A stretch of 61,902 bases of DNA, counting the filler. It is 5 parts of 5 records of this genome, joined end to end, with 100 filler letters (N's around TTAATTAATTAA, not from the genome) between each part and the next. Parts side by side here need not be neighbours in the genome. Positions count along the whole stretch, not along the records: positions 1 to 29,133 come from SRR9188676_1717; 4 more parts are not named here. One strand, written 5' to 3'. Within the stretch, counting starts at the first letter, position 1. Each line of letters starts with the position of its first letter. Both the position numbers and the translations under genes were made by a program. Shown in pieces: positions 7,314-55,125 of this stretch. Under the pieces are notes generated by a model that had not been told where the DNA came from, did not search any database, and saw only the letters and a list, made by a program, of their open reading frames with translations.

Positions 7314-9485
7314 ATGCAAAAAATATTTTTGCCTTTAATGGCATTTCTATATTCCGTAGTGACTTTCGGACAAAACAACTTTAAAGCCAACATCAAAGAC
7401 GTTGAAACAAAAGAACCATTAATTAACGCTACAGCAATTTTACAAGGTTATACTAATGGAGCAGCTGCCAACAAAAATGGTTTCGTAGAACTAAAAAATA
7501 TACCCAATGGTAAACAAGTAATTCTATTTCGTTTTATTGGCTATGCAGAGCGAATTGACACTTTGAATTTTCCATTAGTGCAGTCTGATACAATGGAAAT
7601 ATTCTTACATTCGGAAAACGAAGAAATGGAAGAAGTAGTAATAACTTCAACAAGAAGTAGCCGAACTATTGCAAGCATTCCTACAAGAATTGAAGCAATA
7701 TCAGGCGAAGAATTAACTGAAAAAGGCAATATGAAGCCAGGAGATATTAGAATGATGCTTAATGAGAGTACAGGCATTCAAACACAACAAACTTCGGCAA
7801 CTTCATATAATTCAAGTATCAGAATACAAGGACTTGACGGGAAATACACTCAGATATTAAGAGATGGACTTCCTTTATATTCAGGCTTTTCAGGTGGTTT
7901 AAGTTTATTACAAATTGTTCCACTTGACCTAAAACAGGTAGAACTTATCAAAGGAGCATCATCTACCCTTTATGGCGGCGGTGCAATAGCAGGCTTGGTA
8001 AATTTAATTTCAAAAACGCCAAAAGAGAAAAGAGAGCTCAGTTTTATGCTGAACAGAACATCAGCATTGGGACTTGATGCAAGTGGTTTTTATGCACAAA
8101 AATTCAAAAAAATTGGTGTAACGGTTTTTGCTTCTTACAATAAAGGAACTCCTTATGACCCTGCCAATATTGGACTTACTGCTATACCAAAATTTAATCG
8201 GTACACCCTTAATCCAAGACTATTTGTGTATTTCAACGATAAAACCACTTTAAATGTTGGCGTAAATACAACCATTGAAGACCGTATAGGTGGTAATATT
8301 AAGTACATAAAAAATGAAGCGAATAGTACAAATAGTTTTTTTGAAAAAAATAAAACAAATCGTATTAGTTCCCAACTTGGACTTGACCATCGTATCAACG
8401 AGCAATCAAAAATTTCATTCAAAAATAGTATCAGTTACTATGATAGAAGCATAGAAATTCCGAGTTTTAAGTTTTCAGGTGTGCAAGTTTCGTCATTTAG
8501 CGAAGCATCATATAATCATAAAACTGAAAGAACAGAGTGGATTACAGGCTTAAACCTTTGGACAGACAAATTCAATCAAAACCAATTTGGAAATAGTAAA
8601 TTAGTTGATTACACACATTCTACTTTTGGTGCATTTGTTCAAAACACTTGGAATGCAAGTGAAAATTTTGTTCTTGAAACAGGTATTCGTTGTGATTATC
8701 AAAACGAATACGGACTTTTTGCATTACCAAGAATTTCGACACTATTTAAAGCAAATCAAAAACTAACAATGCGTTTGGGTGGTGGTTTAGGGTACAAAAC
8801 ACCAACTATATTTTCTGAAGATGCCGAAAGAATACAATTTAGAAACGTATTGCCAATAGATGTTTCAAACACAAAAGCCGAGCAGTCAATAGGAACTAAT
8901 TTTGACATCAATTACAAAACATCTCTTTCAGATGAAGTCTTTTTATCTGTAAATACTTTGTTTTTTTACACACAAGTAGTCAATCCATTAGTGCTAATTC
9001 CTACTTCAAGCGGTTCATTTGAGTTTCAACAGCCAAACGGTTTTATTGACACAAAAGGAATAGAAACGAATGTAAAATTGACTTATAGCGACTTTAAACT
9101 TTTCATAGGCTATACTCTTGCAGATGTTAAGCAACATTATAACGGCAACCCAACGCAATTTCCTTTAGTAGCCAAGCATCGTTTAAACAATGTTTTGATG
9201 TACGAAATAGAAGATAAATTGAAAATTGGTTTGGAAGCATATTATTTCAGTCCACAAAAACTCAATGATGGAGCAATAGGAAAATCTTATTGGATTACGG
9301 GCTTGATGGCTGAAAAACTTTGGGAGAAATTTTCTATATTCATAAACTTTGAAAACTTCTTAGACACAAGACAGACAAGGTTTGACACCATTTATACAGG
9401 TTCAATTTCTAACCCAAATTTTAGAGATATTTATGCACCTGTGGACGGCTTTGTAGTTAACGGTGGGCTAAAAATTAAATTATAG
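7314..9485 (+). CDS. TonB-dependent receptor
   Basis: Signal peptide, carboxypeptidase-regulatory-like N-domain, EEVVITSTR, plug IRIQGLDG, ELIKGASSTLYGGGAIAGLVNLI. Confidence 0.95.
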   Translation: MQKIFLPLMAFLYSVVTFGQNNFKANIKDVETKEPLINATAILQGYTNGAAANKNGFVELKNIPNGKQVILFRFIGYAERIDTLNFPLVQSDTMEIFLHSENEEMEEVVITSTRSSRTIASIPTRIEAISGEELTEKGNMKPGDIRMMLNESTGIQTQQTSATSYNSSIRIQGLDGKYTQILRDGLPLYSGFSGGLSLLQIVPLDLKQVELIKGASSTLYGGGAIAGLVNLISKTPKEKRELSFMLNRTSALGLDASGFYAQKFKKIGVTVFASYNKGTPYDPANIGLTAIPKFNRYTLNPRLFVYFNDKTTLNVGVNTTIEDRIGGNIKYIKNEANSTNSFFEKNKTNRISSQLGLDHRINEQSKISFKNSISYYDRSIEIPSFKFSGVQVSSFSEASYNHKTERTEWITGLNLWTDKFNQNQFGNSKLVDYTHSTFGAFVQNTWNASENFVLETGIRCDYQNEYGLFALPRISTLFKANQKLTMRLGGGLGYKTPTIFSEDAERIQFRNVLPIDVSNTKAEQSIGTNFDINYKTSLSDEVFLSVNTLFFYTQVVNPLVLIPTSSGSFEFQQPNGFIDTKGIETNVKLTYSDFKLFIGYTLADVKQHYNGNPTQFPLVAKHRLNNVLMYEIEDKLKIGLEAYYFSPQKLNDGAIGKSYWITGLMAEKLWEKFSIFINFENFLDTRQTRFDTIYTGSISNPNFRDIYAPVDGFVVNGGLKIKL

Positions 9486-9510
9486 CAAAGTGGGTAGACA
9501 GAAAGGTGGG

Positions 9511-9643
9511 AGATAACAGGGGTTTGGTAAAATGGGGGCGGATGGAAGTAATTGAATAGTAGTAATTCTATGAAACTTTTACACTAAATTTAAGTTAACG
9601 TATTTCAAACTTCCCCACTTCGCCAAGCCCCAAAATGTTAAAG
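9511..9643 (+). mobile_element. attC-like site downstream of the TonB receptor
   Basis: GATAAC-A-GGGGTTTGGTAAAATGGGG ... CCCCACTTCGCCAAGCCCC-AAAAT-GTTA; arms 15/19 complementary. Confidence 0.55.
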
Positions 9644-9692
9644 GATGTCACGCTCGTAGAATGTATTAGGGATAAATATTCCTTTTGCCTTG
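9628..9692 (+). repeat. 65-bp direct repeat, copy 2
   Basis: Matches 6433-6497. Confidence 0.8.
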
Positions 9693-9850
9693 AAACATTT
9701 TAATATATCAGTAAGTACTTTCGAACGTGAGGCTCTTTATTGTTTTAGGTCTTAGGATTTCCTAAGATTAATTCTGGGTTGATACGTCAGGATTAAAAAA
9801 TGGATGGTTTTAGAACAGAAATAGTGCTTGTTATTGCCGAGATTAAGTTG

Positions 9851-10057
9851 CTATGTATAGAAGATGACTTTTATTAAATGTAAATTATTGATTTGCTCTA
9901 AATTAATTTTATCTACCTCATCTGTAGTAAATTCGTAGCCCTCATCTTCGTAGCAGTGATAATTTATATCAACCTTCTTTCCTTTAGTTAATATAAGCTC
10001 GTTCCGGGTTTTAACACTGAGGGTTTTGTCACTGAAAGGACGTATTATTATTTGCAT
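9851..10057 (-). CDS. Small hypothetical protein, possibly third gene of the PRTase-NADAR operon
   Basis: 68 aa ORF starting 35 bp after the NADAR stop, same strand. Confidence 0.5.
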   Translation of the reverse strand: MQIIIRPFSDKTLSVKTRNELILTKGKKVDINYHCYEDEGYEFTTDEVDKINLEQINNLHLIKVIFYT

Positions 10058-10092
10058 GATACTTGATAAGTACTCTGTCTCTTCTATTTTTA

Positions 10093-10713
10093 TTAAACCA
10101 TAAACTCTTCATACTCTGTATGAAGCTCAAAATCTCCTAAAATGTTGGTATCGCAAATAATACCAATTGGGTGATTGTATAGTAAAAATGCAGGTAGATT
10201 TACTGGTTCAACACAATAAATTCGGTCATTTGAGTTTACATATTTTTGACGTAATTCCATTAATAACCTTCCGAGTGCATTTATTCCTTGTAACTTACCA
10301 TCTAATAAATACGCTCCCCAAAGTTTATCTTCTTTTGAAAATTCTACAATTGGCTTATCTTCGGTTGATTGAAGTACTTTACTAAACTTTTCCCAGTTTT
10401 GTGCTAACTTCACTTCAAGTACCCATCTCATTATTTTAATTTGCATCCTATCCCAATCTGGTCGACTATACTTTTCTTTATATTTCTTACTTACCATTTT
10501 AGCCTTCATTGCATTATCCTGAGAGATAATTTCATGTTGAATTTCAGGGTTAATGGGATAACGCATAGCCTGATACAGATGCTCAGAAGATGGAATAATT
10601 ACATCATTAATATAAAGGCTATATCCTGATGCCATATTAGACAAACCACCGAAAGCTTCAGTTGTCTTACGAAAAGAGATAACTTCGTTTGGGTTATAAA
10701 TACGTATTTCCAT
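10093..10713 (-). CDS. NADAR (YbiA-like) family protein
   Basis: LSNM, SEHLYQA, RPDW, IVE..KEDKLWG, G.NALGRLLMELR motifs. Confidence 0.92.
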   Translation of the reverse strand: MEIRIYNPNEVISFRKTTEAFGGLSNMASGYSLYINDVIIPSSEHLYQAMRYPINPEIQHEIISQDNAMKAKMVSKKYKEKYSRPDWDRMQIKIMRWVLEVKLAQNWEKFSKVLQSTEDKPIVEFSKEDKLWGAYLLDGKLQGINALGRLLMELRQKYVNSNDRIYCVEPVNLPAFLLYNHPIGIICDTNILGDFELHTEYEEFMV

Positions 10714-10722
10714 GTTGTTTGT

Positions 10723-11790
10723 TTAGTTATTGCCTCGTTTATTTAACGGGAAAAGTCCTTTCCAATTATGAGTTGGATTATCCCACCATAAAACAATAGG
10801 GCAGGTATTACTAATATTACTCCAAGTAAAAAACATTGTGCCTGTGCCAAATGTTTGATACGATGGGTATGTTTTACCTAACGGACGATGATTTTTTCTT
10901 TTTTGTTCATCTTGAATTCTATTGATAATCTCAATACCTTTTTCTAAAAATATTGTTTCTAAACGCTTTCTATTTTCTTTTGATGAAAAGAACGTTTCTT
11001 GTGAAGGTAGAGACAAAGGTCTGAATGCCTTATCTTTATGATTACGTGCGTTATCAATTAAACTACTTAAATATAACTCAAAGTTTATATTGTCTGTTTG
11101 TTGTGGATATATCAAATTTAACCTTTGATTGTAGTCTTTGATATTATTTTCAATCACGTAATACCCACCTATTGTAAACTTTTTTTGAAGCAAAAAAATA
11201 TCTTCGTTCAGTTGCATTTTTAAAGAATAACGAGCACTATTTATGCCCCAAGTATGGATACCAAAAAAGTAGGCTAAAAACTTTATCTTACCAGATTTAA
11301 GATTTTCTAACTGTTCTTCGGTTTTAATCCATTCTAAAACGTTATTCATAAAGGTTTTGCCAGTACCCAGAATATCATCAAGATAAATATAGTTTTTAAT
11401 TCCTAAAGAACCACAAGTATCCAGCGTTTTTTCAAATTTAGTTACTAAAATTTCATTTAGCAAGCCTAATAAAATTGATTGACTTTTACTCTTTGGTTGG
11501 ATATTAAGAAATATTGTTTCATTTAAAAACTGCTCTGTTGATGAATACTTTAAAAAGTTGCGAAGTTTTTCAATCAGACCTTCAAGCAATGCTATTGCTT
11601 TCTGTTTTGAAATATAAATACCTTGATTTAGTAAATGAGCAAATTCTGACAAAATAAACTCTCTATCACTTTCCTCGAATTGATTTACCCACTCCAGAAT
11701 ATGCTCTGGAGTCATTTGAAAATCATCCTGAACATCACAATGATAATCAGATGTTATTTGTGCTATTTGTTCTGCTAATTCTTCCATCAT
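10723..11790 (-). CDS. Phosphoribosyltransferase-like protein (PRTase-CE type)
   Basis: PRPP-binding loop YIYLDDILGTGKT; C-terminal RPLG...FG.G...ISNTCPIVLWW...W.GLFP. Confidence 0.78.
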   Translation of the reverse strand: MMEELAEQIAQITSDYHCDVQDDFQMTPEHILEWVNQFEESDREFILSEFAHLLNQGIYISKQKAIALLEGLIEKLRNFLKYSSTEQFLNETIFLNIQPKSKSQSILLGLLNEILVTKFEKTLDTCGSLGIKNYIYLDDILGTGKTFMNNVLEWIKTEEQLENLKSGKIKFLAYFFGIHTWGINSARYSLKMQLNEDIFLLQKKFTIGGYYVIENNIKDYNQRLNLIYPQQTDNINFELYLSSLIDNARNHKDKAFRPLSLPSQETFFSSKENRKRLETIFLEKGIEIINRIQDEQKRKNHRPLGKTYPSYQTFGTGTMFFTWSNISNTCPIVLWWDNPTHNWKGLFPLNKRGNN

Positions 11791-12057
11791 ATATAATATA
11801 TATCTTTACTCACCCATCTCGCTCCACCACTACTTGCCTCTTTATCAACACTGAATTAACGCTATGTTATAGCCAAACATGTTATAATGTGTAGAAAAAG
11901 ATGTATAATCTTGAGAAGACAGAGTAATAGGTGGATTGTTTAAGTAATTGTAAATTTTCCAACTATTTATTCATCGTTTACGTCCAAATCAAAAGTTATG
12001 GCATTTGACATAAATGATGAAAGAAAAAATAACACTTCAGTAATTTGCTGAGAATGC

Positions 12058-13545
12058 TTACTTCACTGCCAAAGCCGAAATAATGCTTCTAAAACTTTCT
12101 AAACCTGCTTCTAAGTTTTCGATGATGTCTTCTGCTAATACTTCTGGGTCTGGTAAGTTGTCAAGGTCGGCCAAGGATTTGTCTTTGAGCCAAGTGATGT
12201 CTAAACTGGTTTTATCTCTGTCGATGATTTCTTGGTAACTAAATTTTCTCCAACGTCCTTCGGGATTATTTTCAGGATGAAAAGTTTCTTTTCTTAAAAA
12301 GCGATTGCTCGGATGATAACAAGTAATAAAATCTTGTAGGTCTTCCAGTTTAAGTGGATTTTTCTTTAAAGTATGATGAATATTGGTACGGTAATCATAC
12401 ACCCAAATTTCTTTGGTCGAAGGCTCTTTACTGGCTGGTCTGTTATCAAAAAACAATACATTTGCCTTTACACCATGAGCATAAAATATGCCTGTTGGTA
12501 AACGCAAAATGGTATGTAAATCGGTGGTTTCTAATAATTTTTTACGCAATATTTCGCCTGCTCCACCTTCAAAAAGAACGTTATCGGGCAGCACGACCGC
12601 CGCAATGCCTGTGGTTTTCAGCATGGTACGGATATGCTGTACAAAGTTGAGTTGTTTGTTGCTGGTTGTCACCCAAAAATCTTGACGATTGTAAGTCAAA
12701 TCCTCTTTTTCTTGTTCGCCTTCGTTGTTGGTAAAGGTCTGGCTACTTTTTTTGCCAAAAGGTGGATTGGCTAAAATATAGTCATAAGTGCTTGGAGAAG
12801 CCGCTATCAAAGCATCAGTAGGCGAAATAAAGTTATCACTTTCAATATCTCCGATATTATGTAAAAATAAATTCATCAAAGCCATTCTACGGGTAGAGGC
12901 TACGATTTCATTTCCGAAAAAAGTACTATGCTTTAAAAAAGTATTTTGTTCTTTATCTAAACGATGATTGGCTACCAAGTAATCATAAGCCGCCAAAAAG
13001 AAACCACCCGTACCACAAGCTGGGTCGGCAATGGTTTTCATGGGTTGCGGACGCACACACTCTACCATGGCTCTAATCAGTGGGCGAGGAGTGAAGTACT
13101 GCCCTGCACCACTTTTTACATCTTGGGCATTTTGTTCTAAGAGTTTTTCATAAATATCTCCTTTTACATCTGCTCCCATTACCAACCATTGCTCTTTATC
13201 TATCATATCAATGATTTTGGCAAGCATGGCTGGGTCTTGGATTTTATTTTGACTTTTCGTGAAAATCTGCCCCAAAATCCCTTTCTGTGTACTTAGTTCA
13301 CGCAGTAGTGTGGCGTAATGCAATTCTAATTCTGCTCCTTTTTTTGCCGTAAGGCTTTCCCAATTGTATTCTATCGGAATATTTAGTTTACGATTATGCG
13401 GTGGCTTGCTGTATTCATCAGCCATTTTCAAAAACAACAAATAAGTAAGTTGCTCTAAATAATCCCCATAACCCACGCCTACATCTCTCAAAGGATTGCA
13501 GAACGACCAAACCTTACTTACGATACTTGATGTACTTTGTGTCAT
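12058..13545 (-). CDS. hsdM: Type I R-M methyltransferase subunit M (m6A)
   Basis: YLEQLTYLLFLKM, GAGQYFTPR, DPACGTGG, NPPF; start taken at MTQSTSS. Confidence 0.96.
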   Translation of the reverse strand: MTQSTSSIVSKVWSFCNPLRDVGVGYGDYLEQLTYLLFLKMADEYSKPPHNRKLNIPIEYNWESLTAKKGAELELHYATLLRELSTQKGILGQIFTKSQNKIQDPAMLAKIIDMIDKEQWLVMGADVKGDIYEKLLEQNAQDVKSGAGQYFTPRPLIRAMVECVRPQPMKTIADPACGTGGFFLAAYDYLVANHRLDKEQNTFLKHSTFFGNEIVASTRRMALMNLFLHNIGDIESDNFISPTDALIAASPSTYDYILANPPFGKKSSQTFTNNEGEQEKEDLTYNRQDFWVTTSNKQLNFVQHIRTMLKTTGIAAVVLPDNVLFEGGAGEILRKKLLETTDLHTILRLPTGIFYAHGVKANVLFFDNRPASKEPSTKEIWVYDYRTNIHHTLKKNPLKLEDLQDFITCYHPSNRFLRKETFHPENNPEGRWRKFSYQEIIDRDKTSLDITWLKDKSLADLDNLPDPEVLAEDIIENLEAGLESFRSIISALAVK

Positions 13546-15329
13546 ATTTTCCAAATTTTCATTGCTATTTCTGTTAATTCTTCGGCTCTTTTCTCAACTT
13601 GTGAAAATTTAAACTCAGAATATTTCAATACTAATTCTTTAGTTAATTTTATGTCTGATAATTCATAGCACTTCTTTTTTGCCTCAAATGGATTATTTGA
13701 GGCAATTATATTTAATTCTCCTGCCAATAAAGTCATATTACCGATTTTACTTACATATTTTTTATGTTTAAATGCAGCATTTTCACCTAAATATGCTTCC
13801 CAATCTCCATATTTCCTTTTCCAATTATTTGGCTTTATTTTTTCAGGGATAATGTGTTCAAGGTGAACTTCATTTCCTGAATTTAGGGTGAACTCTCTTG
13901 TATTACCACGTAAAAAATACTCTATTTCAGATAAAACGTATTTTGCTCTTGGTATGAGAATTCCTACGAAGTCATGTTTGGGAAAACTATCTTCAAAATC
14001 TATATTTTCAGGATAGTATTCTTGCAATTGCTCTTTAATCTGTTCTATTAAGTTCTCTTCACTCAGTCTAAGAAGTTTAGCAAAAATATTATCATTCTCA
14101 GATGTCCTTTTATTACAAATGTGCCTTCTGAGCATGAACACTTCAAAAATTCTTAGCACTTCTAATTTTTCAGTTTCGTCATCATTTTTTTGAAGATAGA
14201 ACATTAGATATATGTATGAAGGATAAGAAAGTATTGAAGCTAGATTTTTTAACCTTCTGTTAATCTTTACACTTGAAAATTCTTGGCGAATGATTTTGCG
14301 ATAGCAATTAGAGGCTAATGAAATCTTTTTAAGAAAATCTTCAATTGATAATCTACTATTTTCATTTGGCTTACCCTCAGACTCTTTATTTTCATCATCA
14401 TGGTCTATTTCTTCGATTTCAATTTCCTCATCATCGGATTTATCCGATTCAGAAAAATAAGAGAATTCTCCCAATAGCTCAGTATGCTCTACATTTTTAA
14501 TGTAATACTTTTTGAACTCTTCAACCAACTTACTTTGAGGAATTTTTCGAGTTAATATTCCACACATATACTGTCTAAAAAAGTCATCTGTATCAATATC
14601 ATCTAGTGAAACTATGATATTTGACCAAAGTTCTTTCGCATCATCTAAGGTTGCTTGACTTACTTTGGCAGCATGACCAAGAATGAAATTTTTGAGTAAA
14701 TCAGTTGGAGAAAGTCGAAGACCTCTATTGTTGATTGTTTCAAACAGTTTATAAGCATCTTTTGCCATACCCACATTCAGTCGAATAATGATGGCTACGT
14801 TAGTCAATTTATAAAAGAATTTATTGAGCCAATCTTTATCCTTGTTTTTAATTTGCTCTCTGTACCAAATAGAGGCATACTCCAAATTTTTATTAAAAAG
14901 CTCGTCTAAGTCACCTTTAAGGATTTTCTGATAATCTTTGTTATCTAATTCACCCAGAACCAATTTGCTTTTCTCTATATCATCGTATCCTTTGCAATAT
15001 AGCATTCTATTTATATCATCAACTTTTGATTGATTTTCAAGAACCTTATAACGGTTTCTAATAGCAATCATTAATAAGGATATAGTTGTCATGCGTTGTT
15101 GCCCATCAACTAACTCTGCTGTATTTACGCCTTGATTTGTATTGCTGTGTAAAATTAACATTCCGAAAAGATGACCATCATCATCTCGAAGCATATCAAT
15201 ATCTTCAAATAAAGCGGCTACTTGATTATGACCCCAAGCGTATCTTCTTTGATAGCTTGGAATTATAAATTGTTCAGATTGAATACTTAGCAGTTGGGAT
15301 AAATTAAGGTCTTTTGAATTAATTTGCAT
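13542..15329 (-). CDS. GmrSD-like DUF262/DUF1524 modification-dependent endonuclease
   Basis: IPSYQRRYAW, LVDGQQR, FETINNRG, HNH-type EHIIPE...IGNMTLL...LN. Confidence 0.9.
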   Translation of the reverse strand: MQINSKDLNLSQLLSIQSEQFIIPSYQRRYAWGHNQVAALFEDIDMLRDDDGHLFGMLILHSNTNQGVNTAELVDGQQRMTTISLLMIAIRNRYKVLENQSKVDDINRMLYCKGYDDIEKSKLVLGELDNKDYQKILKGDLDELFNKNLEYASIWYREQIKNKDKDWLNKFFYKLTNVAIIIRLNVGMAKDAYKLFETINNRGLRLSPTDLLKNFILGHAAKVSQATLDDAKELWSNIIVSLDDIDTDDFFRQYMCGILTRKIPQSKLVEEFKKYYIKNVEHTELLGEFSYFSESDKSDDEEIEIEEIDHDDENKESEGKPNENSRLSIEDFLKKISLASNCYRKIIRQEFSSVKINRRLKNLASILSYPSYIYLMFYLQKNDDETEKLEVLRIFEVFMLRRHICNKRTSENDNIFAKLLRLSEENLIEQIKEQLQEYYPENIDFEDSFPKHDFVGILIPRAKYVLSEIEYFLRGNTREFTLNSGNEVHLEHIIPEKIKPNNWKRKYGDWEAYLGENAAFKHKKYVSKIGNMTLLAGELNIIASNNPFEAKKKCYELSDIKLTKELVLKYSEFKFSQVEKRAEELTEIAMKIWKI

Positions 15330-15354
15330 AAATAATATTTGTGTAATTTAGTGT

Positions 15355-15397
15355 TTTTTAAACCAACAACTCCTCAGTTGCCTTTTCCGAAATACTC
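15355..15397 (-). pseudogene. Remnant of an hsdS 3' end
   Basis: 33/43 nt identical to 16792-16834; reads SISEKATEELLV* versus SILKKAFEGQLV*. Confidence 0.65.
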
Positions 15398-15472
15398 CAT
15401 TAAAATCCCGCCACGGATTGCAAAATGCTTAAACTATAATTGATGTATTGTCAATCATTTTAATCTCGTATT

Positions 15473-16780
15473 TTAAATAAACATAGATTGTTTTTCTTTT
15501 CTAATAACATCATATTCATTCCAGGATAAATATGCGTTATTTATAAAATCCCATATTATCTTCTTTATCAGATTTTTAAAAAAAATGAATAATTCCTCTC
15601 GTTGCTCTTTATCAATCATCAAATCCTCTAAAGACTTTCCTTTATGGACAATCTCAGTTCTTATGTCTTCTGAAAGAAATCTAAATTTTTCAGATAAATT
15701 ATGATAGTCTGTTTTATTTTTTGCGATGTAAGTTATAATTTTCCCTTTCAACTTTTTAAAAGTTTCATATTCAAACGGATTCCCGAGAAATTCTATAAGA
15801 GTCATAATCTGTGTAAATTTTAATGATTCATTATCAGATTCAGCTATACTTGCATTGAGTTTAAGAGCGTATTTAATCAATTTGCCTACTTCTCCAAGTT
15901 CATCTTCGTTATCAACCAAGATACCTGAATTATTCATTACAAACGTTTCGCTAAATTCCAATCCCACACCTTTGACAAGGGTTTTAATTTCAACTTCTCT
16001 TGATTGAAAGAAAGCTATATTATAAGCTGAGAAATGCACCATTGCCACCGAGTGACGGTCATTCCATAATCCAGCTCTTGCTGGCAACCTCTCAGGAATA
16101 GTGTAATTACAAGAAAGGAATTTTATAATATCTAAAACTTTGTCAGCTTTTTGTGAATACGATTTAATTAAACTGACATCATCTATTTGACTAAGCTTTA
16201 CGTAATCTTCAATACGAATCTTGTCACGAAATACGATTAATGGAAAATCGTTAAACAACTCTTTTTTGATACCTGTGTACCAAGTAATATAATCTCTGTT
16301 GCTAATATTTTGTGATTTTGTGATTTCACTTAAATCTACATCTTCAAAATTTATTAAATCTTCACCATTCAGGTTTTTTAAATTTATTTTATGGACTTGG
16401 AATTCACCTGCTGGAAATAAACACATCTGCTTACTGTAAACTGTATCATTTATCAATAATCTGCTAAGAGGCAAAATTACAATTTGCTCAGATGTTAAGA
16501 AATTGTCAAAATTTAACTCTTCATCTTCTTTATAAACCTTTATATTCATCCATGGGAAAGCTAATTCAAAATCGAACAAATCTTCTTCTGAATCTTGTAA
16601 ATTAAAAGTAAGTCCATCTCCTTCTGGAAATCGACTTATCCAATAATTTTTGCTTTGTAAATAATGGATACCCTTTTGCAAATCACGTTCAGGGTACAGA
16701 TAAGGAGGCATCCATAATAGATTTCCATAATTTAAATTTCCATGAAAATCTTTATGTGAAAATTTAATTACACAGTTCAT
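15473..16780 (-). CDS. Hypothetical protein with C-terminal HEPN (ApeA-like) RNase motif
   Basis: 435 aa; helical C-terminus KFTQIMTLIEFL...IRTEIVHKG with Rx4H. Confidence 0.65.
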   Translation of the reverse strand: MNCVIKFSHKDFHGNLNYGNLLWMPPYLYPERDLQKGIHYLQSKNYWISRFPEGDGLTFNLQDSEEDLFDFELAFPWMNIKVYKEDEELNFDNFLTSEQIVILPLSRLLINDTVYSKQMCLFPAGEFQVHKINLKNLNGEDLINFEDVDLSEITKSQNISNRDYITWYTGIKKELFNDFPLIVFRDKIRIEDYVKLSQIDDVSLIKSYSQKADKVLDIIKFLSCNYTIPERLPARAGLWNDRHSVAMVHFSAYNIAFFQSREVEIKTLVKGVGLEFSETFVMNNSGILVDNEDELGEVGKLIKYALKLNASIAESDNESLKFTQIMTLIEFLGNPFEYETFKKLKGKIITYIAKNKTDYHNLSEKFRFLSEDIRTEIVHKGKSLEDLMIDKEQREELFIFFKNLIKKIIWDFINNAYLSWNEYDVIRKEKQSMFI

Positions 16781-16794
16781 ATCTTTTCAAATTT

Positions 16795-18027
16795 TTAAAC
16801 CAACTGCCCCTCAAATGCCTTCTTTAATATACTCTGCCGTAAGGTTTCGCTTTGGGCAAGGCTTTGGCTAATGGTTTCCTCAATCTTATCGCAAATTGTT
16901 AATTTACTTTCTAATTCTTCTATGATGCGATTTTGTTCATCTATTGGAGGAATTGGGATTTCAATCTTTAAAAATTTGGATTGTGTTAAATTTAAACCAC
17001 TATCGCTGATTCCAGATTTCATTTTTTCAATTTCACGTTGATAAAATGGGGTGTTAAGAACTAATTCAAAATACTCTGGCTTAACCATTTTGATATTAAC
17101 CTTAATCCTATAAACTTTATCACTATTAATTAATTTGGGTCTTGTACTTTTTATCATACAACAAACACCAACTCTTATTCGTGGACCTGCACGTGTAATA
17201 AGAATATCCCCCATTTTCAATTCGTGTTGCTCTCTTGGTTTTAAATTGGTTGGTAATACTTTATTTTCATGAGCCATAAAATGTCCATTTTGTACTGCAC
17301 TTGTTTTTATAACAGCCCATTCATTTTCATTTATGGAGTATTCATTGAGGCATTTTGGACTCCAACCTTGGTCAAGTTTGTTAATAACGGATTCTATTGA
17401 TTGACAATTTTTGCCTGTAACAATTGTATTCAACAAACTTTGGCGATATACTTTTAATTGTCCCTGTGCTGTCAGTAATTGTTGTTTCCCATTCTCTAAA
17501 TCACTAAGTAATTCTTCTATTTTGGCCACGATGGCGGTTTGTTCGGATAGGGGAGGGTAAGGAAAAGGTTGAGAAAATACATCTTTATCACGAATTGCAG
17601 GATATGAACTACCTGTCTGTAATTCATTTAATGGTTGGAGAAATTTATGAGATAAAGAGTAATAAAAAATAAATTTAGGATTAATGATTTCCTTATTTGC
17701 CCTGATAACACAAAATCCAGAAGAAGCAATTTGACCATCATAAATCTGATTATTAACTATTGCAATATTCTTCATGTAGGTTCTTACAGTAGAAAATAAA
17801 ATATCATCTAAATGGACAATTTGCTGAGCTCTTGAAGGGGCATTTTCCCAAATGAAATTTTTATGAGATAAAACTACATTGGTAAGGTTATCAATACCAC
17901 CAATGTCTAAATAAAGTAGTTCTTCATCAAGTTTTTTTTCCTTTCTTTTTACTGTCTGTACTTTTAAACAAACCTCACTTAACTTTTTAACTTCCCAACC
18001 TTTGGGTAATTTTGTTTTTTCTATCAT
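16795..18027 (-). CDS. hsdS: Type I R-M specificity subunit S
   Basis: LPKGWEVKKL, two TRDs, PPLSEQTAIV and PPIDEQNRII, SILKKAFEGQL. Confidence 0.96.
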   Translation of the reverse strand: MIEKTKLPKGWEVKKLSEVCLKVQTVKRKEKKLDEELLYLDIGGIDNLTNVVLSHKNFIWENAPSRAQQIVHLDDILFSTVRTYMKNIAIVNNQIYDGQIASSGFCVIRANKEIINPKFIFYYSLSHKFLQPLNELQTGSSYPAIRDKDVFSQPFPYPPLSEQTAIVAKIEELLSDLENGKQQLLTAQGQLKVYRQSLLNTIVTGKNCQSIESVINKLDQGWSPKCLNEYSINENEWAVIKTSAVQNGHFMAHENKVLPTNLKPREQHELKMGDILITRAGPRIRVGVCCMIKSTRPKLINSDKVYRIKVNIKMVKPEYFELVLNTPFYQREIEKMKSGISDSGLNLTQSKFLKIEIPIPPIDEQNRIIEELESKLTICDKIEETISQSLAQSETLRQSILKKAFEGQLV

Positions 18028-18121
18028 GCTTAAATAAGAATGTTCTTGTGCTAAAGCTGTAATTTCATTTACTGTTATTAGCTTTTTTATAAATTAAGTA
18101 TTTGTTTATTAGGTGTAATTG

Positions 18122-19387
18122 TTAATTAGATTGTTGGAATAATTGATATAGACTTTCTTTTTCTTCTACTTCTAAATCAATAATTCCTTCTAACGTTTCT
18201 AAGATATGTTTACGTTCATCTGAGACCAATAGTAAATTTAAAAATCGTACAAAAAACTTCTTTTGCTCAGTATTAAGCGAAATAAATAACCTTGGTTGTA
18301 CTTCATAAAGATTTATCAATGTTTCCTCAAGTTGAGATTTCTCAAAATCACTTTTGTATGCTGGAAATATTCCATCTTGATTGTACTTCTCAATTAGTTT
18401 TGTTGAGGTTTTACGAAGAATATCTTTCCTTTTTTTATGAAGAAACTCACTTAACAGATTATGAAGATATTTATATTCAGACAAGTATTTCGCTTTACTA
18501 AAAAGGTTTGTTTGTTGATTATTTGCTTGAGATTGGAAATCAAAGTCGTTAAAAAAGCTACTTGAAATATATACACTATGGTAAAACTCATCACCTTTAT
18601 TATTAAGTGTAGTGTAATCTTTATACACTTCTTCATGGTTTGCATTGAGATAATAAAATCTTGATAGTTCTTTGTGTGGTTTATTAGTCCATTGATAGTA
18701 TTTACATTGAAAACTTGTATTGCTTTCTTCATAAGTAAGCATAAAAGTCTCAGAGTCTTCTATAAATGATTGATAGTTCAAAGGAGTACCATTGATAATA
18801 ATTGTATAGCCTTTCGCTTTATTTAACTCTAAAAACCAACAAAACTCACTAATTAGGAAGGTAATAACATCTTTTTCCAGTTCTTCTTTACCAATAGTTA
18901 CGTTATGAAAAATAACGCTAGTCCCTGTTTTATCATTTTCGCTTTTAATTAAAGCAGAAGCATTATACTTGTTGATATTTTCGGTATTAATTGTAATGTC
19001 TCCTTCCAATAATAGACCGTTTTTCTGGAAAGTAGTATGCCACTTTGCGATTTGAGCAAAAGTGAAAAAGGTTAATCTTCCTACACCATTTTTTCCGTGT
19101 ATTGTAGAAATATGTTTATCATCTCTTGAACTAACTTCTATGGCTTTTTCAGATGAATAAAATAAATTGAATTTGGTGTCTAATTGTTCAAAGTTAATTC
19201 CATAGCCATTATCTGTTACTTCAATTGTTTCAACTGTACCCAGTTCATTAATTTTAAAATTCAAGTGAACAGTATCTGCTTTTGCATCAAAGCCATTCCA
19301 GATAAATTCAGCAATAGCAAGTTTTGAATCATAATTTTTAAGTACTTTTTTTATACCACTAGGAGTAATGTTAACATTATTTGACAT
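18122..19387 (-). CDS. GHKL (HATPase_c/MORC-like) ATPase
   Basis: AIAEFIWNGFDA, DNGYGI, GKNGVGR, TGTSV Bergerat-fold motifs. Confidence 0.9.
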   Translation of the reverse strand: MSNNVNITPSGIKKVLKNYDSKLAIAEFIWNGFDAKADTVHLNFKINELGTVETIEVTDNGYGINFEQLDTKFNLFYSSEKAIEVSSRDDKHISTIHGKNGVGRLTFFTFAQIAKWHTTFQKNGLLLEGDITINTENINKYNASALIKSENDKTGTSVIFHNVTIGKEELEKDVITFLISEFCWFLELNKAKGYTIIINGTPLNYQSFIEDSETFMLTYEESNTSFQCKYYQWTNKPHKELSRFYYLNANHEEVYKDYTTLNNKGDEFYHSVYISSSFFNDFDFQSQANNQQTNLFSKAKYLSEYKYLHNLLSEFLHKKRKDILRKTSTKLIEKYNQDGIFPAYKSDFEKSQLEETLINLYEVQPRLFISLNTEQKKFFVRFLNLLLVSDERKHILETLEGIIDLEVEEKESLYQLFQQSN

Positions 19388-19653
19388 AGTCTTACTTAGG
19401 TTAAAATTTATAAAATGTTTGATTGAACCAGAACAAAATTATTACTTAAATGTTGAATTACATTGGTTTGGGCTATATGCTGAAATAAAGAATTACTCAG
19501 AGCAGCGCTAATGTTTATACCAAATTCTCTTTCGTTGATGGCTTTATTTATCATGAAAGGTTTCTTCTGTATGCTTATTATTTTTACAATTAGTGAATAT
19601 TTAAGCGGGGTAAAAAATTATACTTTGAATGTATTGCTCTTAAAAGTAATTGT

Positions 19654-22473
19654 TTACGCTGCCAATACTTCGTTTAATTCATTAATAATCAACTCATAAT
19701 CATTTTGAAATAATTGGTAAAACTTACCTAAACCACCATTTCTATTGAAAGGGTCGAGGTCGAAATCATCTTTATCAATATGAAAACTATTGCTTACATA
19801 GTCTTTTATCATGCGTAGCCAAGTCATTTGTTCTTCATTAAACTTGGTAGCACCAGCTTGTTTTTTAAATACCCAATCCTGAAAATTCTTATCTACAATT
19901 TTATCAAAGGCAGTCAGCGTACTATCAACGCCTGTTACTTTACGAATCAAGGCAACAATAGCAGTAAGTTCGTTTTTGGCAGAGCCGTTGCATTGCCCCA
20001 AAGCTTCATAAGCTTGCCACAAGTGAATAGGAGTGAGGGCAGGCTTTTCGTTTTGGAGTTTCTCTAAAACTTCCTTAATCATACTGTAAGTCAATTCCCG
20101 ACGACGATAAGGCTGGCTATAAAAAATCTGTAAAGCTGTTAGTTCGTCTTTATTGGCAATAATCCAAGCCTCAAAATCTTCGATTAGTTCCTTTGCTTTT
20201 TCTTGGCTATCTTTTGCCCAACCTACATTCAAAACCTCATCAGGATTCGATAAATCAATTTTTTGTTCATGGGCTTTTCTTACGTTTTCGATATATTCGT
20301 TTAATTCACCCGTAAAAACTTTAGCAGCATCATTCAAGATGATTGTATGCTGGGTTACAATAGCCTCTTCAATTGCTTCGGGGCTTTCGCCTATCATCTT
20401 CACCGTAATTTTCTCTCTCAAATCTTCTAATACATCAGGATTATGAGCGTTCAATAAGCCTCTTACAACCTCTGAAATGTTTTTTCCTCCAGTTTTCTCA
20501 GCGAATTTAGCTTTTTCTTTTTCGGTTAATTGCTTATCCAAGCGAGCCAATCTACTTGCCAAAGAACTGAATAGCTCTTCATCTCTTGCACCGACTGCAA
20601 CAGCTTGGAGTAAATCTTTCAAAGGAACGCCGGGCTTTTTCTCTAAAGGTCGGCTATCTGTTTTTAGGCTTTTAGTTACACCGATGGCATCCACAATCAC
20701 AAAATGGTCTTTAGAGAATTTAGCCGTTTTAGATACCTTTTGTAAAGCATCCAGCGAAATAATTCTTGTGCCTCTACCTTTCATTTGCTCGAAATAGTTT
20801 CTACTTTTTACATCTCGCATAAAAAGTAAGCATTCAAGCGGTTTTACGTCTGTACCTGTCGCAATCATATCTACAGTTACGGCAATTCGTGGATAATAGT
20901 CATTTCTGAAATTCGCCAAAGTACTTTTAGGAGCTTCGCCTTTTTCTATGATTTTTCCATCCTCATCCTTTCTGTCTTTATCAGAGCTGTAAGTGATTTT
21001 TTTACAGAATTTGTTTTCTTCGTTAAATTCTTCTCTTACAATCTGGATAATATCGTCGGCATGGCTATCAGTCTTAGCAAAAATGAGTGTTTTGGGTACT
21101 TCAAAACAAGCATTTTCATCGAATCTATCAGGAAAAATAAAAGGTAAATGTTCTTTAAAAGCCCTAATAATCGTTCTGATTTGAAGCGGGTTCACTACTT
21201 CTTTATCTAATTGTTTAGAAGAATAGAGTTCGTCTTCATCTTGCAATTCCATTCTTTTTTTACGGCTGAGGCGTTCACGGTGTTCAACATATTCACCTTT
21301 CCACAGTACAGCACCTTTTTGGCTTATTTTAGTCTCTATGATAAAGACATCAAAACCAACATTTACACCATCAGCTACTGCCATTTCATGCGAATATTCG
21401 CTTACAATATTTTGGTCGAAATAGCCAATGGTACGTTTATCAGGCGTAGCAGTAAGTCCAATTTCAAAAGCATCATAATAATTCAACACTTGACTCCATA
21501 GATTGTAAATACTTCTGTGACATTCATCAATAACGATAAAGTCAAAGAAGTCAATTGGCATTTTGTCATTGTATTCAACAGTCGGAATGGTTTTGGGTTG
21601 ATAGGACTTTTCGTTAGGGTTTTCTTCCTCGGCACTATCATCTAATTCAGAGCCTTTCAGTACCGCATACAAACGTTGAATCGTACTAATACACACCTGA
21701 CTATCCGTGGCTATGTAGCTGGATTTTAAACGTTGTACATTGTATAATTCCGTAAATTTTCTGTTATCGTCATTAGGCACAAAAGTCATAAACTCCTGTT
21801 CGGCTTGTTCGCCTAAGTTTCTGGTATCTACCAAAAATAAAACACGTTTTGCTTTGGCATATTTAAGTAAACGATAAATAAAAGTAATAGCCGTAAAAGT
21901 CTTGCCCGACCCTGTAGCCATTTGGATAAGAGCCTTAGGTTTATTTTGTTTAAAAGACAGCTCCAATTTATTAATAGCATTGATTTGGCAATCTCTTAGC
22001 CCATCAATGGGCAAGCTGGGTAAATCAAGTAATCTTTTTCTCAGTGATTTCCCTTTCTTGAGCCAATCCCTCAAAGTTTCAGGTTTATGAAAATGAAATA
22101 TTTCTCTTGTTCTTGGCTTTGGGTCGGTAAAGTCAGTAAAGCGAGTAATTTCTCCTGTACTTATATAGACATACGGAAGTGGAGTATTATTGAGGTGTTT
22201 AAGTTTAGCGTTGGCATATCCTACACTTTGGTCTTCGTGTACATTCAATTTATGTCCTTCCTCTTCTCTCTTAGCTTCAATAACACCACAAGGTTTGCCA
22301 TCTACAAAAAGCACATAGTCGGCAGGGCCAACATCTGTTAAATACTCTTTCACAGCAACTCCAACTCCAGCATTGAGATTGATACGTTTGATATGTTGAA
22401 TAATCCATCCACAAGAAATTAATTGCTTGTCGATGGTATCTCGTGCTATTTGTTCAGGATTTTGGTTGGGCAT
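19654..22473 (-). CDS. hsdR: Type I R-M restriction subunit R (EcoEI-like C-terminus)
   Basis: ADYVL...IEAK nuclease motif, ATGSGKT, DECH, LTATP, QMKGRGTR; start taken at MPNQNPEQ. Confidence 0.96.
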   Translation of the reverse strand: MPNQNPEQIARDTIDKQLISCGWIIQHIKRINLNAGVGVAVKEYLTDVGPADYVLFVDGKPCGVIEAKREEEGHKLNVHEDQSVGYANAKLKHLNNTPLPYVYISTGEITRFTDFTDPKPRTREIFHFHKPETLRDWLKKGKSLRKRLLDLPSLPIDGLRDCQINAINKLELSFKQNKPKALIQMATGSGKTFTAITFIYRLLKYAKAKRVLFLVDTRNLGEQAEQEFMTFVPNDDNRKFTELYNVQRLKSSYIATDSQVCISTIQRLYAVLKGSELDDSAEEENPNEKSYQPKTIPTVEYNDKMPIDFFDFIVIDECHRSIYNLWSQVLNYYDAFEIGLTATPDKRTIGYFDQNIVSEYSHEMAVADGVNVGFDVFIIETKISQKGAVLWKGEYVEHRERLSRKKRMELQDEDELYSSKQLDKEVVNPLQIRTIIRAFKEHLPFIFPDRFDENACFEVPKTLIFAKTDSHADDIIQIVREEFNEENKFCKKITYSSDKDRKDEDGKIIEKGEAPKSTLANFRNDYYPRIAVTVDMIATGTDVKPLECLLFMRDVKSRNYFEQMKGRGTRIISLDALQKVSKTAKFSKDHFVIVDAIGVTKSLKTDSRPLEKKPGVPLKDLLQAVAVGARDEELFSSLASRLARLDKQLTEKEKAKFAEKTGGKNISEVVRGLLNAHNPDVLEDLREKITVKMIGESPEAIEEAIVTQHTIILNDAAKVFTGELNEYIENVRKAHEQKIDLSNPDEVLNVGWAKDSQEKAKELIEDFEAWIIANKDELTALQIFYSQPYRRRELTYSMIKEVLEKLQNEKPALTPIHLWQAYEALGQCNGSAKNELTAIVALIRKVTGVDSTLTAFDKIVDKNFQDWVFKKQAGATKFNEEQMTWLRMIKDYVSNSFHIDKDDFDLDPFNRNGGLGKFYQLFQNDYELIINELNEVLAA

Positions 22474-22791
22474 AGTTAAGCAAAACAATTGTTTGAGGTA
22501 AAATTTACTTGCTATTTAGTAGGTTTGGAGAGGAACAACAAATGTAGCATAAATGCGTAGAACCGCCTTATCATCCTATTGATGTAACAACCTAAATATA
22601 CTTTAGACAAATATATTAACATTTGTTGAGTAGGACAATTGGGCTTGATGATAATTGTTGAAGAAAAAAGAATAGTTAGGACAAAGCGAAAGGGATATAC
22701 TTCAGATAATGAGTTGTTTTATAAAATAACTGTTACTTTGCAAATAAATAATCACCTTGTGATTCAACAATATTAAATACAGACACTTACG

Positions 22792-25700
22792 ATGAAATGG
22801 ATTGATTCAACAGATATACGCAATTGGGCCAATAGAAGAGATTGCCAAGAATTGTTGCCTTTACTTGTTAGAAAATTGATTAGAGCTACCTCCAATACAA
22901 TTCAAAATATCAAATTCCCAGCAGGAGATAGTATTTCATTTGGTGGATGGGATGGAATTCTTGAGGTAAAAGAAAGCACAGATTTTTTGCCTGATGGAAT
23001 TTCACTTTGGGAATTTGGTACCTCAAAAAATCCTAAAGGAAAAGCTGACGATGATTATTTAAAAAGGACAACAAATCCATTAGAGTATTCTCCTTCTGAA
23101 TCAACTTTTATTTTTGTAACACCACGTCTTTGGCAAAATGAAAAAGATTGGATTGAAGAAAAAAGAAAAGAAGGTATTTGGAAAGATATTAAAGTTATAA
23201 ATGCTGAATTACTGGAAGAGTGGATTGAACTTGCTCCGACAGTTGGAGCTTGGTTAGCAAAACATTTAGGAAAATATCCATCTGTAGGTATTCAGCCGAC
23301 TGATGATTTTTGGGAAGAATGGACTTCTGGCCCTAATTTCAAATTAACACCAGAAGTATTATTGGGAGGGAGAAAAGCTGAACAACAAAAACTCATATTA
23401 GGACTTTACAGTTCCTCTGTCATTGGAGTTCAGGGATCCTCACGAGAAGAAGCTTTGGCTTTTATTATTTCTTGTGTAAAAAATAACCAAGAAACAGAAG
23501 AAGATTTTTTCTCACGAAGTATAATAGTTGATAGCATAGAAGTTTTCAGAGAGTTAGCATTGCATGATAATTCATTAATTCTAATTCCCAGATTTGAAGA
23601 CCATGCAGTTGCAAACCGAGCAGTAGAGAAAGGACACATTGTTATATTTCCATTAGGCGCAGATGCTACTAATTGGCCTAACAAAATTGTGCTTCCAAAT
23701 ATTGATAGAGATTGTTTTATTGAAGCGTTTACTCAGATAGGCATAAGTAAAATAATGGCTGATAGGCTTTCAAAAGAAACAGCCCGTAATATCACAATAG
23801 TTAGGCGTCAACTCGAATTTGAAAGAATAAAACCTATTTGGGCTAAACAGGAAAATGTCGCTGATATCATTCCTATATTAATTGTTGGAAGATGGGATGA
23901 AAACATAAAAAGCGACACTGAAATCATCGCAAGCATCGCAGGAGATAGTTACTCAAACTATATTAAACGACTTAGTAAATGGTTAAATACTTCCGATTCT
24001 CCAATTGTAAAAATAGGAAATAAATGGAGGCTTTCTTCTCCTCTTGATGCTTGGAGCAATGCATCCAACTATCTAACTTCGAAAGACTTTGAATTGCTTG
24101 CAAATTCGTTTAAACTTATTTTAACAGAAGTAAACCCAGCATTAGAGCTTTCTCCTGAAGTTAGATATATGGCATCTATTTATGGAAAAAAAAGAAAATA
24201 TTCATCTTGGATACGAGAAGGAATTCTTCAATCATTAATACTTGTGTCAACGTTTGGAGAAAGATTACAATTTCATTTACCTACAAAAGCCGATTTATGG
24301 ATTGATGGATTAATAGCTGAATTATTGAATTCAGATAGTATTGACTTGTGGAAATCATTAGATGATAAACTCCCATTAATCGCAGAAGCTTCTCCTTTTT
24401 CTTTTCTGGAAGCGTTAGACAAACATTTAGTCAAACTAGATAATTCGATGCTTGGTTTATTTGAAGAGGAACCAAATTTTATTTTTTCAAGAAGTTATCA
24501 TATTGGCTTACTTTGGGCTTTAGAAAGTTTGGCATGGTTTCCTCAATACCTATCAAGAACTTCACTTATACTAGCTAAACTCTCCGTTATAGACCCAGGT
24601 GGCAATGTAATAAATAGACCTATCAACAGCCTGAAAGAAATTTTCAAATCTTGGCATTATCAAACATTTGCTTCTTTTGATGAAAGAATGCAAGTCTTAA
24701 ATCTAATTTGTAAAAATCAACCAGAAATAGGATGGGAACTTTTGCTAAGTATGCTACCCAAATCGATTGGAGATACAGCAATTACTACTCATAAAACAAG
24801 ATGGAAAAGTTTTGAACAAGTGGAAATAACTTATACACGGGATGTAATGTTTAGGACTCATTCAGAAGTGATAGATATACTGATTAATATTTTTGATAAT
24901 TCAGAGACTAAATTAACAACACTTATTGAAAAATCAGTTAACCTTTCAACAAATGATATGGACAGGCTTTTAACATTTATAGAAGCTAATTTAACCAATG
25001 TAAAGCAATATGAGTTTACAGCATGGCATGAAGTCCGTAGCATTATTGAAGATCATAGTTCTCATCCTGAAAGTGATTGGGTATTATCAGAAAAAGAGTT
25101 AGATAGGTTTCAAAGACTTTATAAACGACTTCAACCAGTTAATGAAATTGAACGTGTTGCTTGGATGTTTGATAATTCTCAATTCAGTTTTCCCAAAGGA
25201 TTGGATTATAAGAATACATCACACCGAGACCGAATGCAATATGTTCTTACAAAAAGAATAGAAATATTATCTGATATATATCAAAATAATGGCATAGAAA
25301 AAGTAATAGAGATCAAAGGTATTATTAAAGAAACTCAAACCTTAGGAGATGTTTTAGCTTATATTGTAAATGATGATAAAGAAATAATTCATCTCTGTGA
25401 ATTCCTTAATAGCGAAAGTTCAGATTTAGACTTTATCCAACATTTTTTACTTAGAAAATCTTTCTTAAATGATTTTGTGTGGATACAGAGGTTATATGAA
25501 AAATTAAGCATTCTAGATTTCAAAAATTCGTCATTAGCAAAGCTGCTTATTCCTATAAAGCAAACTAAGCAACTTTGGGATTTTATAGATTCTCAAGAAG
25601 ATAAAATTGTTCATGAATACTGGAAGAATATGAATCCTAATTTTTACTCACTAAATATAGATGAAAAAGTATTTGGACTTAAAAGGTTAATTATTAGTGA

Positions 25701-50932: not shown

Positions 50933-51032
50933 NNNNNNNNNNNNNNNNNNNNNNNNNNNNNNNNNNNNNNNNNNNNTTAATTAATTAANNNNNNNNNNNN
51001 NNNNNNNNNNNNNNNNNNNNNNNNNNNNNNNN
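50933..51032. other. Artificial contig linker
   Basis: N44-TTAATTAATTAA-N44. Confidence 0.98.
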
Positions 51033-51096
51033 ATTCATCCATGGCACTGGTTTAACCCCCCCGCCCCTCCCCCCCGCAAAATGAATATGCACTTAC

Positions 51097-54841: not shown

Positions 54842-55125
54842 GGTATAATATATTTTATGACTCTTTTCATCTTATCCATTTGTGAATTTTCTATTTATAC
54901 AGACAGAAATATAGATGTCGAATCTCATAAGTTCCAAAAATCATTCGATTGAAATCTGAAAACGAGAGTCAATCAAATGCTCTCTACTTTCTTGTTTTTG
55001 CCTTCCCTACCACGAATCCATTGGTCATCGTCGTCGTGAGCATCATCTCTGTGATACTGTGCTTCTGACTCGCGTTCTTGCTGTTTTTGCTTTCTCTCCT
55101 CTCCCTCTCTCTCTCTGTCTCTCTC

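Follow-up and report, generated by a model that had tools for sequence, protein, structure and literature searches.

The locus described here raises the question of what a phosphoribosyltransferase (PRTase) and a NADAR N-glycohydrolase, encoded side by side and without DarT, may do together. Both genes lie in the window, i.e., the whole stretch of 61,902 nucleotides (nt) that was analysed, of which positions 1 to 29,133 come from SRR9188676_1717. An earlier examination of the letters alone (the sequence-only reading) had proposed the pair as a candidate anti-phage system in which the NADAR removes what the PRTase writes. The best overall explanation, which we regard as fairly probable, is that the pair forms a Bacteroidota anti-phage cassette of the DS-32 kind at the end of a type I restriction-modification (R-M) and GmrSD island, with the NADAR checking the product of the PRTase. 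The three open reading frames (ORFs) of the site are the following:

10723..11790, minus strand: PRTase-CE family phosphoribosyltransferase-like putative effector, 355 amino acids (aa), phosphoribosyl pyrophosphate (PRPP) loop Y136-x-D138-D139-x4-G144 (ORF, Pfam, AlphaFold2 model, alignments)
10093..10713, minus strand: YbiA-type NADAR N-glycohydrolase (predicted), 206 aa, with E44, R51, E124, D129 and W132-G133 (ORF, Pfam, alignments)
9851..10057, minus strand: 68-aa ORF, N-terminal remnant or mini-version of an MqsA-like/helix-turn-helix (HTH)/Panacea antitoxin (homology)

The NADAR ORF begins 9 nt past the PRTase stop and the 68-aa ORF lies 35 nt beyond the NADAR ORF, all on the same strand; translation of the PRTase ORF includes NYIYLDDILGTGKT and that of the NADAR ORF includes IVEFSKEDKLWGA. 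The PRTase and NADAR genes are both intact and retain their catalytic motifs. Coordinates and Pfam assignments agreed with the sequence-only reading, which had described a 355-aa PRTase with an intact PRPP loop, a NADAR 9 nt further on and a 68-aa ORF, all downstream of hsdM. Its remark that no ADP-ribosyltransferase was to be seen was borne out as well, since Pfam returned no such family in 25 of the 39 window ORFs of at least 110 aa, the remaining 14 overlapping longer ORFs in other frames; the absence of DarT at the home locus is judged within the window.

The window PRTase was assigned to Pfam family PRTase-CE (PF24390) with 152 bits (cut-off 27, E 3.6e-44) and its PRPP loop is intact, an acidic pair being followed by small residues, YIYLDDILGTGKT (YLDDILGTG). 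Homologues were aligned in a set of 14 sequences from Bacteroidota, Pseudomonadota and Bacillota and in a set of 37, which adds Chloroflexota, Cyanobacteriota, Deferribacterota and Thermodesulfobacteriota. Y136, D138, D139 and G144 never varied in either alignment, and the same held for the S103-Q104 pair and for a C-terminal block comprising G305, G315, G317, N325, N328, P331 and W335. As invariant residues were found in the homologues of both proteins across phyla, the PRTase and NADAR motifs are not chance occurrences.

An AlphaFold2 model of the PRTase, built on the 37-sequence alignment, showed a mean predicted local distance difference test score of 93.6 and a predicted template modelling score of 0.91. 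Comparison of the model with 48,161 PDB representatives returned three uracil PRTases as the best matches (Z 8.9, 8.5 and 8.2, root-mean-square deviation 2.7-3.3 Å, 126-144 residues aligned), and most of the other top-30 structures were type I PRTases or PRPP synthetases. Foldseek gave weak matches whose top rows were also PRTases (best E about 0.015) and nothing at E <= 0.001, and a profile search against PDB sequences produced no match at E <= 1. With moderate confidence, the model thus suggests that the window PRTase adopts the type I PRTase fold.

The NADAR was recognised by Pfam PF08719 with 79.7 bits (cut-off 35.1, E 3.8e-22), and the closest solved chain was E. coli YbiA (2b3w, E 3.2e-13, over residues 9-158). 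E44 and E124 were invariant in alignments of 6 and 28 homologues, while R51 and D129 were invariant in the 6-sequence alignment and not among the invariant or at least 90% conserved columns of the 28. E124 sits in an IVE tripeptide that aligns with the VE of YbiA. The YbiA subfamily is described as having Glu where DarT1-associated NADARs have the catalytic Asp and phage NADARs have His (Schuller et al. 2023, PMC11543638), its other key residues being a Glu and a Lys seven residues later (PMC11543638). Since the window protein carries Glu at the discriminating position (E124) together with E44 and R51, it is of YbiA type and not of DarG1 type. It shares with YbiA the E...(K/R) and VE..(x)D..WG motifs and differs from it in having Arg instead of Lys, a C-terminal tail of about 45 residues and a fixed position beside a PRTase, YbiA being a stand-alone metabolic enzyme. 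A motif in the tail (P-x-N/L..F-x-L..I, residues about 158-190) was kept in the PRTase-linked NADARs and in two orphan phage NADARs described below. YbiA is cited for the cleavage of N-glycosidic bonds in reactive riboflavin intermediates, and NADARs of all families are reported to take ADP-ribose off guanine in vitro (PMC12945103).

Among 185,579 species genomes, a pattern scan yielded 210 confirmed PRTase relatives; the best 80, a sample leaning to Bacteroidota, were searched with profile hidden Markov models of both proteins. Of these best 80 of the 210 relatives, 77 had a NADAR ORF directly after the PRTase and in its orientation, and the three others were contig ends: in L043 and L083 fewer than 520 nt separate the PRTase from the end of the contig, and in L074 the match stands at a contig end with no intact ORF called. 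The linkage that the sequence-only reading had asked to be surveyed was therefore confirmed, the pair being self-contained and without DarT. The PRTase was likewise followed by an annotated NADAR family protein in all five annotated records (Klebsiella, Bacillus, Methylobacterium, Vibrio, E. coli); the first four of these are the distinct records examined from a plasmid collection that gave seven PRTase matches, four of them on near-identical Bacillus cereus plasmids. Measured against one common set of five distant records, the NADAR showed 42-51% identity versus 24-29% for the PRTase.

The cassettes of the sample came from Bacteroidota, Cyanobacteriota, Chloroflexota, Bacillota, Deferribacterota, Thermodesulfobacteriota and Pseudomonadota, so that the pairing is kept across at least seven phyla; the cassette itself is rare and patchy. 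Of 301 genomes drawn from the family to which one Flavobacterium carrier belongs, 3 contained it, the carrier itself counted in (E <= 1e-20), and a Klebsiella probe found matches in 62 of the 5,426 complete genomes of E. coli. A metagenome scan for close relatives gave one distant locus with 43% identity, proteins of 83-98% identity exist, and a tblastn search of a phage collection with the window PRTase returned no match. In five Chryseobacterium loci (L061, L062, L067, L071, L077) one NADAR is preceded by a tandem pair of PRTase-CE paralogues, which share 34% identity and each contain the DD loop. NADAR ORFs of about 250-335 aa, in place of the usual 200 aa, were observed in Cyanobacteriota (L078, L080, L081), in Chloroflexota (L070, L076, L082, L084) and in L075, which suggests an extra fused domain.

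A pair of this kind has already been described. A PRTase (A) and NADAR (B) pair from E. coli is reported as the validated anti-phage system DS-32, protective in E. coli (DefensePredictor; DeWeirdt et al., bioRxiv 10.1101/2025.01.08.631726), and the comparison with DarTG as well as 'TA partner swapping' are already present in that preprint (10.1101/2025.01.08.631726); in the Science version (PMC13092281) NADAR is mentioned just in passing. In the one E. coli record examined, genes annotated as 'phosphoribosyltransferase-like protein' and 'NADAR family protein' have replication gene P of a lambdoid prophage on one side and its ybcN/ninE genes on the other; the accessions of this pair are WP_021548563.1 and WP_000122138.1. 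The window proteins aligned with these from end to end, with 26% identity for the PRTase (E 3e-28) and 43% for the NADAR (E 2e-50). Like DS-32, the window pair has its two genes next to each other and in one direction, the PRTase ahead of the NADAR, with no DarT; it differs in being a divergent, chromosomal Bacteroidota copy appended to a type I R-M island, whereas the E. coli comparator resides in a lambdoid prophage. The window locus is thus very probably a DS-32-type defence cassette.

As the DarTG comparison and partner swapping are in print, the pair is not an undescribed system; it is a divergent Flavobacterium-type/Bacteroidota copy of an already published kind of cassette. The proposal of a candidate anti-phage system thus holds as far as the defence island and the validation of DS-32 are concerned, and falls in so far as a new system was meant. 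The question whether the pair is already catalogued received a mixed answer, PADLOC-DB 2.0.0 containing no dedicated model and giving, for the window pair and four other pairs, only weak matches of the PRTases to PRTase_III-A and of the NADARs to PDC-M42C, while the architecture itself is published as DS-32. A search of the literature on NADAR with PRTase, PRPP or phage defence, judged for the PRPP part by title and abstract, gave no mechanistic study of the pair, and the Aravind-lab reviews that name both NADAR and PRTase draw no link between them. As the discovery of a new system the locus adds little; its value lies in showing that a homologous cassette of a validated anti-phage pair reaches into Bacteroidota, and the catalytic residues invariant across groups offer a clear set of mutants.

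The genes upstream of the pair, all on its strand, were assigned as follows:

11791..12057, minus strand: spacer between hsdM and the PRTase gene, 267 nt (coordinates)
12058..13554, minus strand: hsdM, 498 aa, N6_Mtase and HsdM_N (Pfam; PADLOC MTase_I, 6.2e-192)
13542..15329, minus strand: GmrSD type IV nuclease (Pfam)
15473..16780, minus strand: 435-aa protein, no Pfam or PADLOC family (ORF scan)
16795..18027, minus strand: hsdS (Pfam; PADLOC Specificity_I)
18122..19387, minus strand: HATPase_c_3 protein, 421 aa, weak DUF2779 match (Pfam)
19654..22488, minus strand: hsdR (Pfam)

On the basis of these Pfam calls, the PRTase-NADAR pair ends a type I R-M and type IV restriction island, and within 12058..22488 PADLOC also matched HEC-06/Orf5. 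The 267-nt spacer could possibly provide the pair with its own promoter; a sigma-70 promoter and terminator scan, whose model does not cover Bacteroidota promoters, showed no excess over shuffled sequences (9 sites versus 12.9 expected). The type I R-M operon also holds two extra embedded genes, those for the 435-aa protein (15473-16780) and the HATPase_c_3 protein (18122-19387).

For the neighbourhoods elsewhere, one locus in three was taken from the 51 whose 6-kb flanks were complete, giving 17 loci with 120 ORFs of at least 150 aa, which were analysed with Pfam. Defence-type neighbours occurred in 7 of the 17 loci, a figure that is descriptive and carries no background rate for enrichment: Eco57I-type R-M in two loci and, in one each, type III R-M, Shedu with SLATT, HNH and PLD-helicase genes, two GmrSD genes, MksE/SMC, and a PLD nuclease. 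Three of the 17 showed mobile-element or toxin markers only (TnsA-like; Tra genes; HipA and resolvase), and no DarT or other ADP-ribosyltransferase family was present among the 120 neighbour ORFs. The defence setting anticipated by the sequence-only reading was therefore encountered in part, as an equal number of loci (7/17) had housekeeping neighbours only. On the B. cereus plasmid the pair lies near the Gabija gene gajA.

The role of the PRTase was then considered in the light of other systems containing related proteins. A table in a survey of retrons lists PRTase-CE alongside the reverse transcriptases of type III-A1 (PMC13712802), and type III-A retrons such as Retron-Eco11 have in common with the window PRTase the Pfam family/clan PRTase-CE and apparently the C-terminal G...N..P region. 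Where the motif of retron PRTases, Gx14PNNxP (PMC12746101), aligns, the window protein carries SNTCP and the E. coli and Klebsiella homologues PNNTP, N328 and P331 being invariant, and in PADLOC-DB 2.0.0 the window PRTase matches the retron PRTase_III-A models weakly (E 7.9e-10). The partner is different, being a NADAR and not a reverse transcriptase with its multicopy single-stranded DNA: no reverse transcriptase family was found among the scanned window ORFs (25 of the 39 of at least 110 aa) and no Rfam family in window positions 9000-23000 or 51000-61902. Once activated, the PRTase of Retron-Eco11 is reported to lower PRPP by about 50% (PMC12746101).

ShosTA likewise employs a PRTase effector; ShosT is reported to bind PRPP and to require its DD pair for toxicity (PMC11961720). 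It differs from the window system in its N-terminal pyrophosphatase domain and in its DNA-binding, DprA-like partner ShosA; in our PRTase model the N-terminal 60 residues are helical and do not form a Rossmann pyrophosphatase. A further member of the same effector family (PF24390, 214 bits) was found in a Flavobacterium genome, where it has a different partner, a 650-aa ORC-CDC6-like ATPase (PF24389); genes for a DNA methylase and a CARF-like protein lie close by, and there is no NADAR. As this is a second copy in that genome and adjoins the ATPase instead of a NADAR, PRTase-CE is, as far as gene neighbours can tell, a modular effector. This cluster (L093 3541-8780, genome G002) comprises the DNA methylase, PRTase-CE, the ORC-CDC6-like protein and a protein matching PADLOC CARF6 models (2.9e-87), and has an AbiEii-like gene and thymidylate synthase upstream.

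DarTG1 resembles the window pair in its toxin-first order with NADAR second and in that phages carry orphan NADARs for both; such phage genes are reported against DarTG1 (10.1101/2024.07.11.602962). The toxin there is an ADP-ribosyltransferase and here a PRTase, whose donor would be PRPP and not NAD+, and the DarG1-type Asp is replaced by the YbiA-type Glu (E124) in the window NADAR. PADLOC analysis of the window gave neither a DarTG nor a Shos model match.

NADARs resembling the PRTase-linked ones were found in Dolichospermum phage Dfl-JY45 (209 kb) and in an uncultured 485-kb phage record:

L086, 3989-4627: orphan phage NADAR (PP438435.1)
L087, 3995-4630: orphan phage NADAR (LR745208.1)

These proteins scored 181 and 236 bits against the linked-NADAR profile, with linked NADARs at 173 or more and four ordinary phage NADARs at 44-92. 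In a quick maximum-likelihood tree of 89 rows both fell inside the linked clade, with Shimodaira-Hasegawa-like approximate likelihood ratio test (SH-aLRT) values of 88-89 on the enclosing branches and 96 on one pairing, and three ordinary phage NADARs split off at SH-aLRT 99. PRTase-CE was present in neither of the two whole phage records. The orphan genes are thus candidate counter-defence genes against PRTase-NADAR systems, as judged from their sequences.

Taken together, these comparisons suggest a mechanism in which the PRTase-CE protein would be the effector, because the same family marks retron III-A1 effectors and has an ORC-CDC6-like neighbour elsewhere, the Retron-Eco11 enzyme lowers PRPP and ShosT needs its DD pair. 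The PRTase might move the ribose-5-phosphate of PRPP onto an acceptor nitrogen, most likely of a nucleobase, either free, in a nucleotide or in nucleic acid, and this action would drain PRPP and/or yield a harmful N-phosphoribosyl adduct. The YbiA-type NADAR would cleave that N-glycosidic bond, holding the product of the effector in check in uninfected cells, so that neutralisation would be enzymatic as in DarTG and would not proceed by sequestration; infection is assumed to shift the balance towards the PRTase. We propose the NADAR as eraser or antagonist of the PRTase product tentatively, with somewhat less than even confidence, on account of its YbiA-type Glu, the phage orphans, the loci with two PRTases and one NADAR, and its higher conservation. 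Indeed, loci with one NADAR for two PRTases, a NADAR better conserved than its partner and orphan phage NADARs are what would be expected if a NADAR undid a common PRTase product and a phage profited from this activity. These three observations, if they hold, point to the enzymatic reversal of a PRPP-derived adduct.

A bolder version, in which the PRTase marks a DNA or RNA nucleobase with a PRPP-derived phosphoribosyl group, the NADAR erases it and large phages have captured the eraser as counter-defence, appears unlikely on present grounds; if true, it would be the first reversible nucleic-acid phosphoribosylation system and would parallel the arms race between DarTG1 and orphan NADARs.

Several points weigh against the reading of the pair as a defence cassette with an erasing NADAR. 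The C-terminal motif of the window PRTase (SNTCP) departs from the PNNxP of retron PRTases, and the Retron-Eco11 PRTase alone is reported as not toxic in E. coli (PMC12746101); a PRTase-CE protein thus need not be a toxin in its own right. Two phage records carry the phage argument, together with a quick tree in which the branches concerned have SH-aLRT values of 88-89, and the E. coli prophage pair is not confirmed as the cloned DS-32, which its architecture and gene order fit. Only 7 of the 17 loci sampled had defence-type neighbours, with no background rate, and 7 had housekeeping ones only. Finally, we still infer the writer/eraser chemistry of the pair, acceptor included.

Other explanations were weighed against the erasing NADAR. 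The two enzymes might cooperate in a cycle that burns PRPP, the PRTase loading an acceptor base and the NADAR at once hydrolysing the product, which would free the acceptor again, with PRPP and water converted on balance to ribose-5-phosphate and pyrophosphate, so that phage nucleotide synthesis is starved and both proteins, as effectors, lack an antitoxin role. The PRPP decrease of about 50% upon activation of a related retron PRTase (PMC12746101), the pairing in ShosT of a PRTase with a second enzyme that pulls the reaction forward (PMC11961720) and the strict co-occurrence of two invariant active sites are in line with such a cycle. We nevertheless consider it improbable, as phages bearing an orphan NADAR of the linked clade would then aid the defence; the sharing of one NADAR by two divergent PRTases suits either model. 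Quite unlikely in our view is a toxin-antitoxin pair based on binding, in which the NADAR mainly complexes the PRTase, for instance through its C-terminal tail (residues about 158-190), and its glycohydrolase activity is secondary. DarG is said to neutralise DarT2 partly through binding by a second domain, and the tail motif is conserved in linked NADARs and the two phage orphans; yet the catalytic residues of the NADAR are invariant across phyla, one NADAR serves two PRTases of 34% identity, and the NADAR is far better conserved than its partner, which is unusual for a co-evolving binder.

The idea that the two genes serve housekeeping or metabolite repair and play no part in defence, or are what is left of a DarTG1 locus after loss of darT, has a very low probability. 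YbiA-type NADARs are credited with cleaning up riboflavin intermediates, and 7 of the 17 sampled loci have housekeeping neighbours only. A housekeeping function is at odds with the presence of the cassette in only about 1% of the genomes of a family or species, with its occurrence on plasmids, in an accessory slot of a lambdoid prophage and beside Gabija, R-M, Shedu, GmrSD and Mks genes, and with the reported validation of DS-32 (10.1101/2025.01.08.631726). Decay from DarTG1 is disfavoured by the lack of any DarT or ADP-ribosyltransferase family in the scanned window ORFs or in the 120 neighbour ORFs of the 17 loci, and by the Glu of the NADAR in place of the Asp of DarG1-type NADARs. The explanation by a DS-32-kind cassette with an antagonistic NADAR was therefore preferred to these alternatives.

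The 68-aa ORF, which the sequence-only reading had noted after the NADAR, does not belong to the system. No homologue was detected in 85 loci (best tblastn E 0.31), and a collection of 5.8 billion proteins contained only two homologues of near-equal length (P0121 and P0122, 92% and 89% identical), whose C-termini diverge after residue 58. A HMMER search over 1.84 billion representatives gave nine matches. In P0125 and P0130 (334 and 337 aa, the two long ones of seven scanned), which are antitoxin proteins with an MqsA-like N-terminus, an HTH and SocA_Panacea, the ORF covers residues 1-60 only. A search of the window with the long proteins recovered 10057..9884 alone and not the rest of a Panacea-type gene. 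As it aligns to the N-terminus only and the remainder is absent, the ORF is either what remains of the 5' end of a Panacea-type antitoxin gene or a short version of such a gene that stands alone; judged by homology, it is a lineage-restricted ORF and not a third component of the cassette. Other short versions of this N-terminus (62-113 aa) were seen in the protein library, and such free-standing mini-forms may be real genes. A weak, sub-threshold Pfam match of the ORF (E 0.088) was dismissed as chance.

Two other regions of the window were also noted. Positions 22792-50980 contain plus-strand ORFs of 1257, 5544 and 1662 aa, with no Pfam family at E <= 0.01 save a stray row of 0.0016, and between them a patatin-like phospholipase of 642 aa. 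Positions 53400-58800, about 5.4 kb with no ORF of at least 110 aa and no Rfam family, carry many short overlapping ORFs, some of which adjoin partial EamA or cation-efflux matches; these could be pseudogenes or frameshift errors of the assembly.

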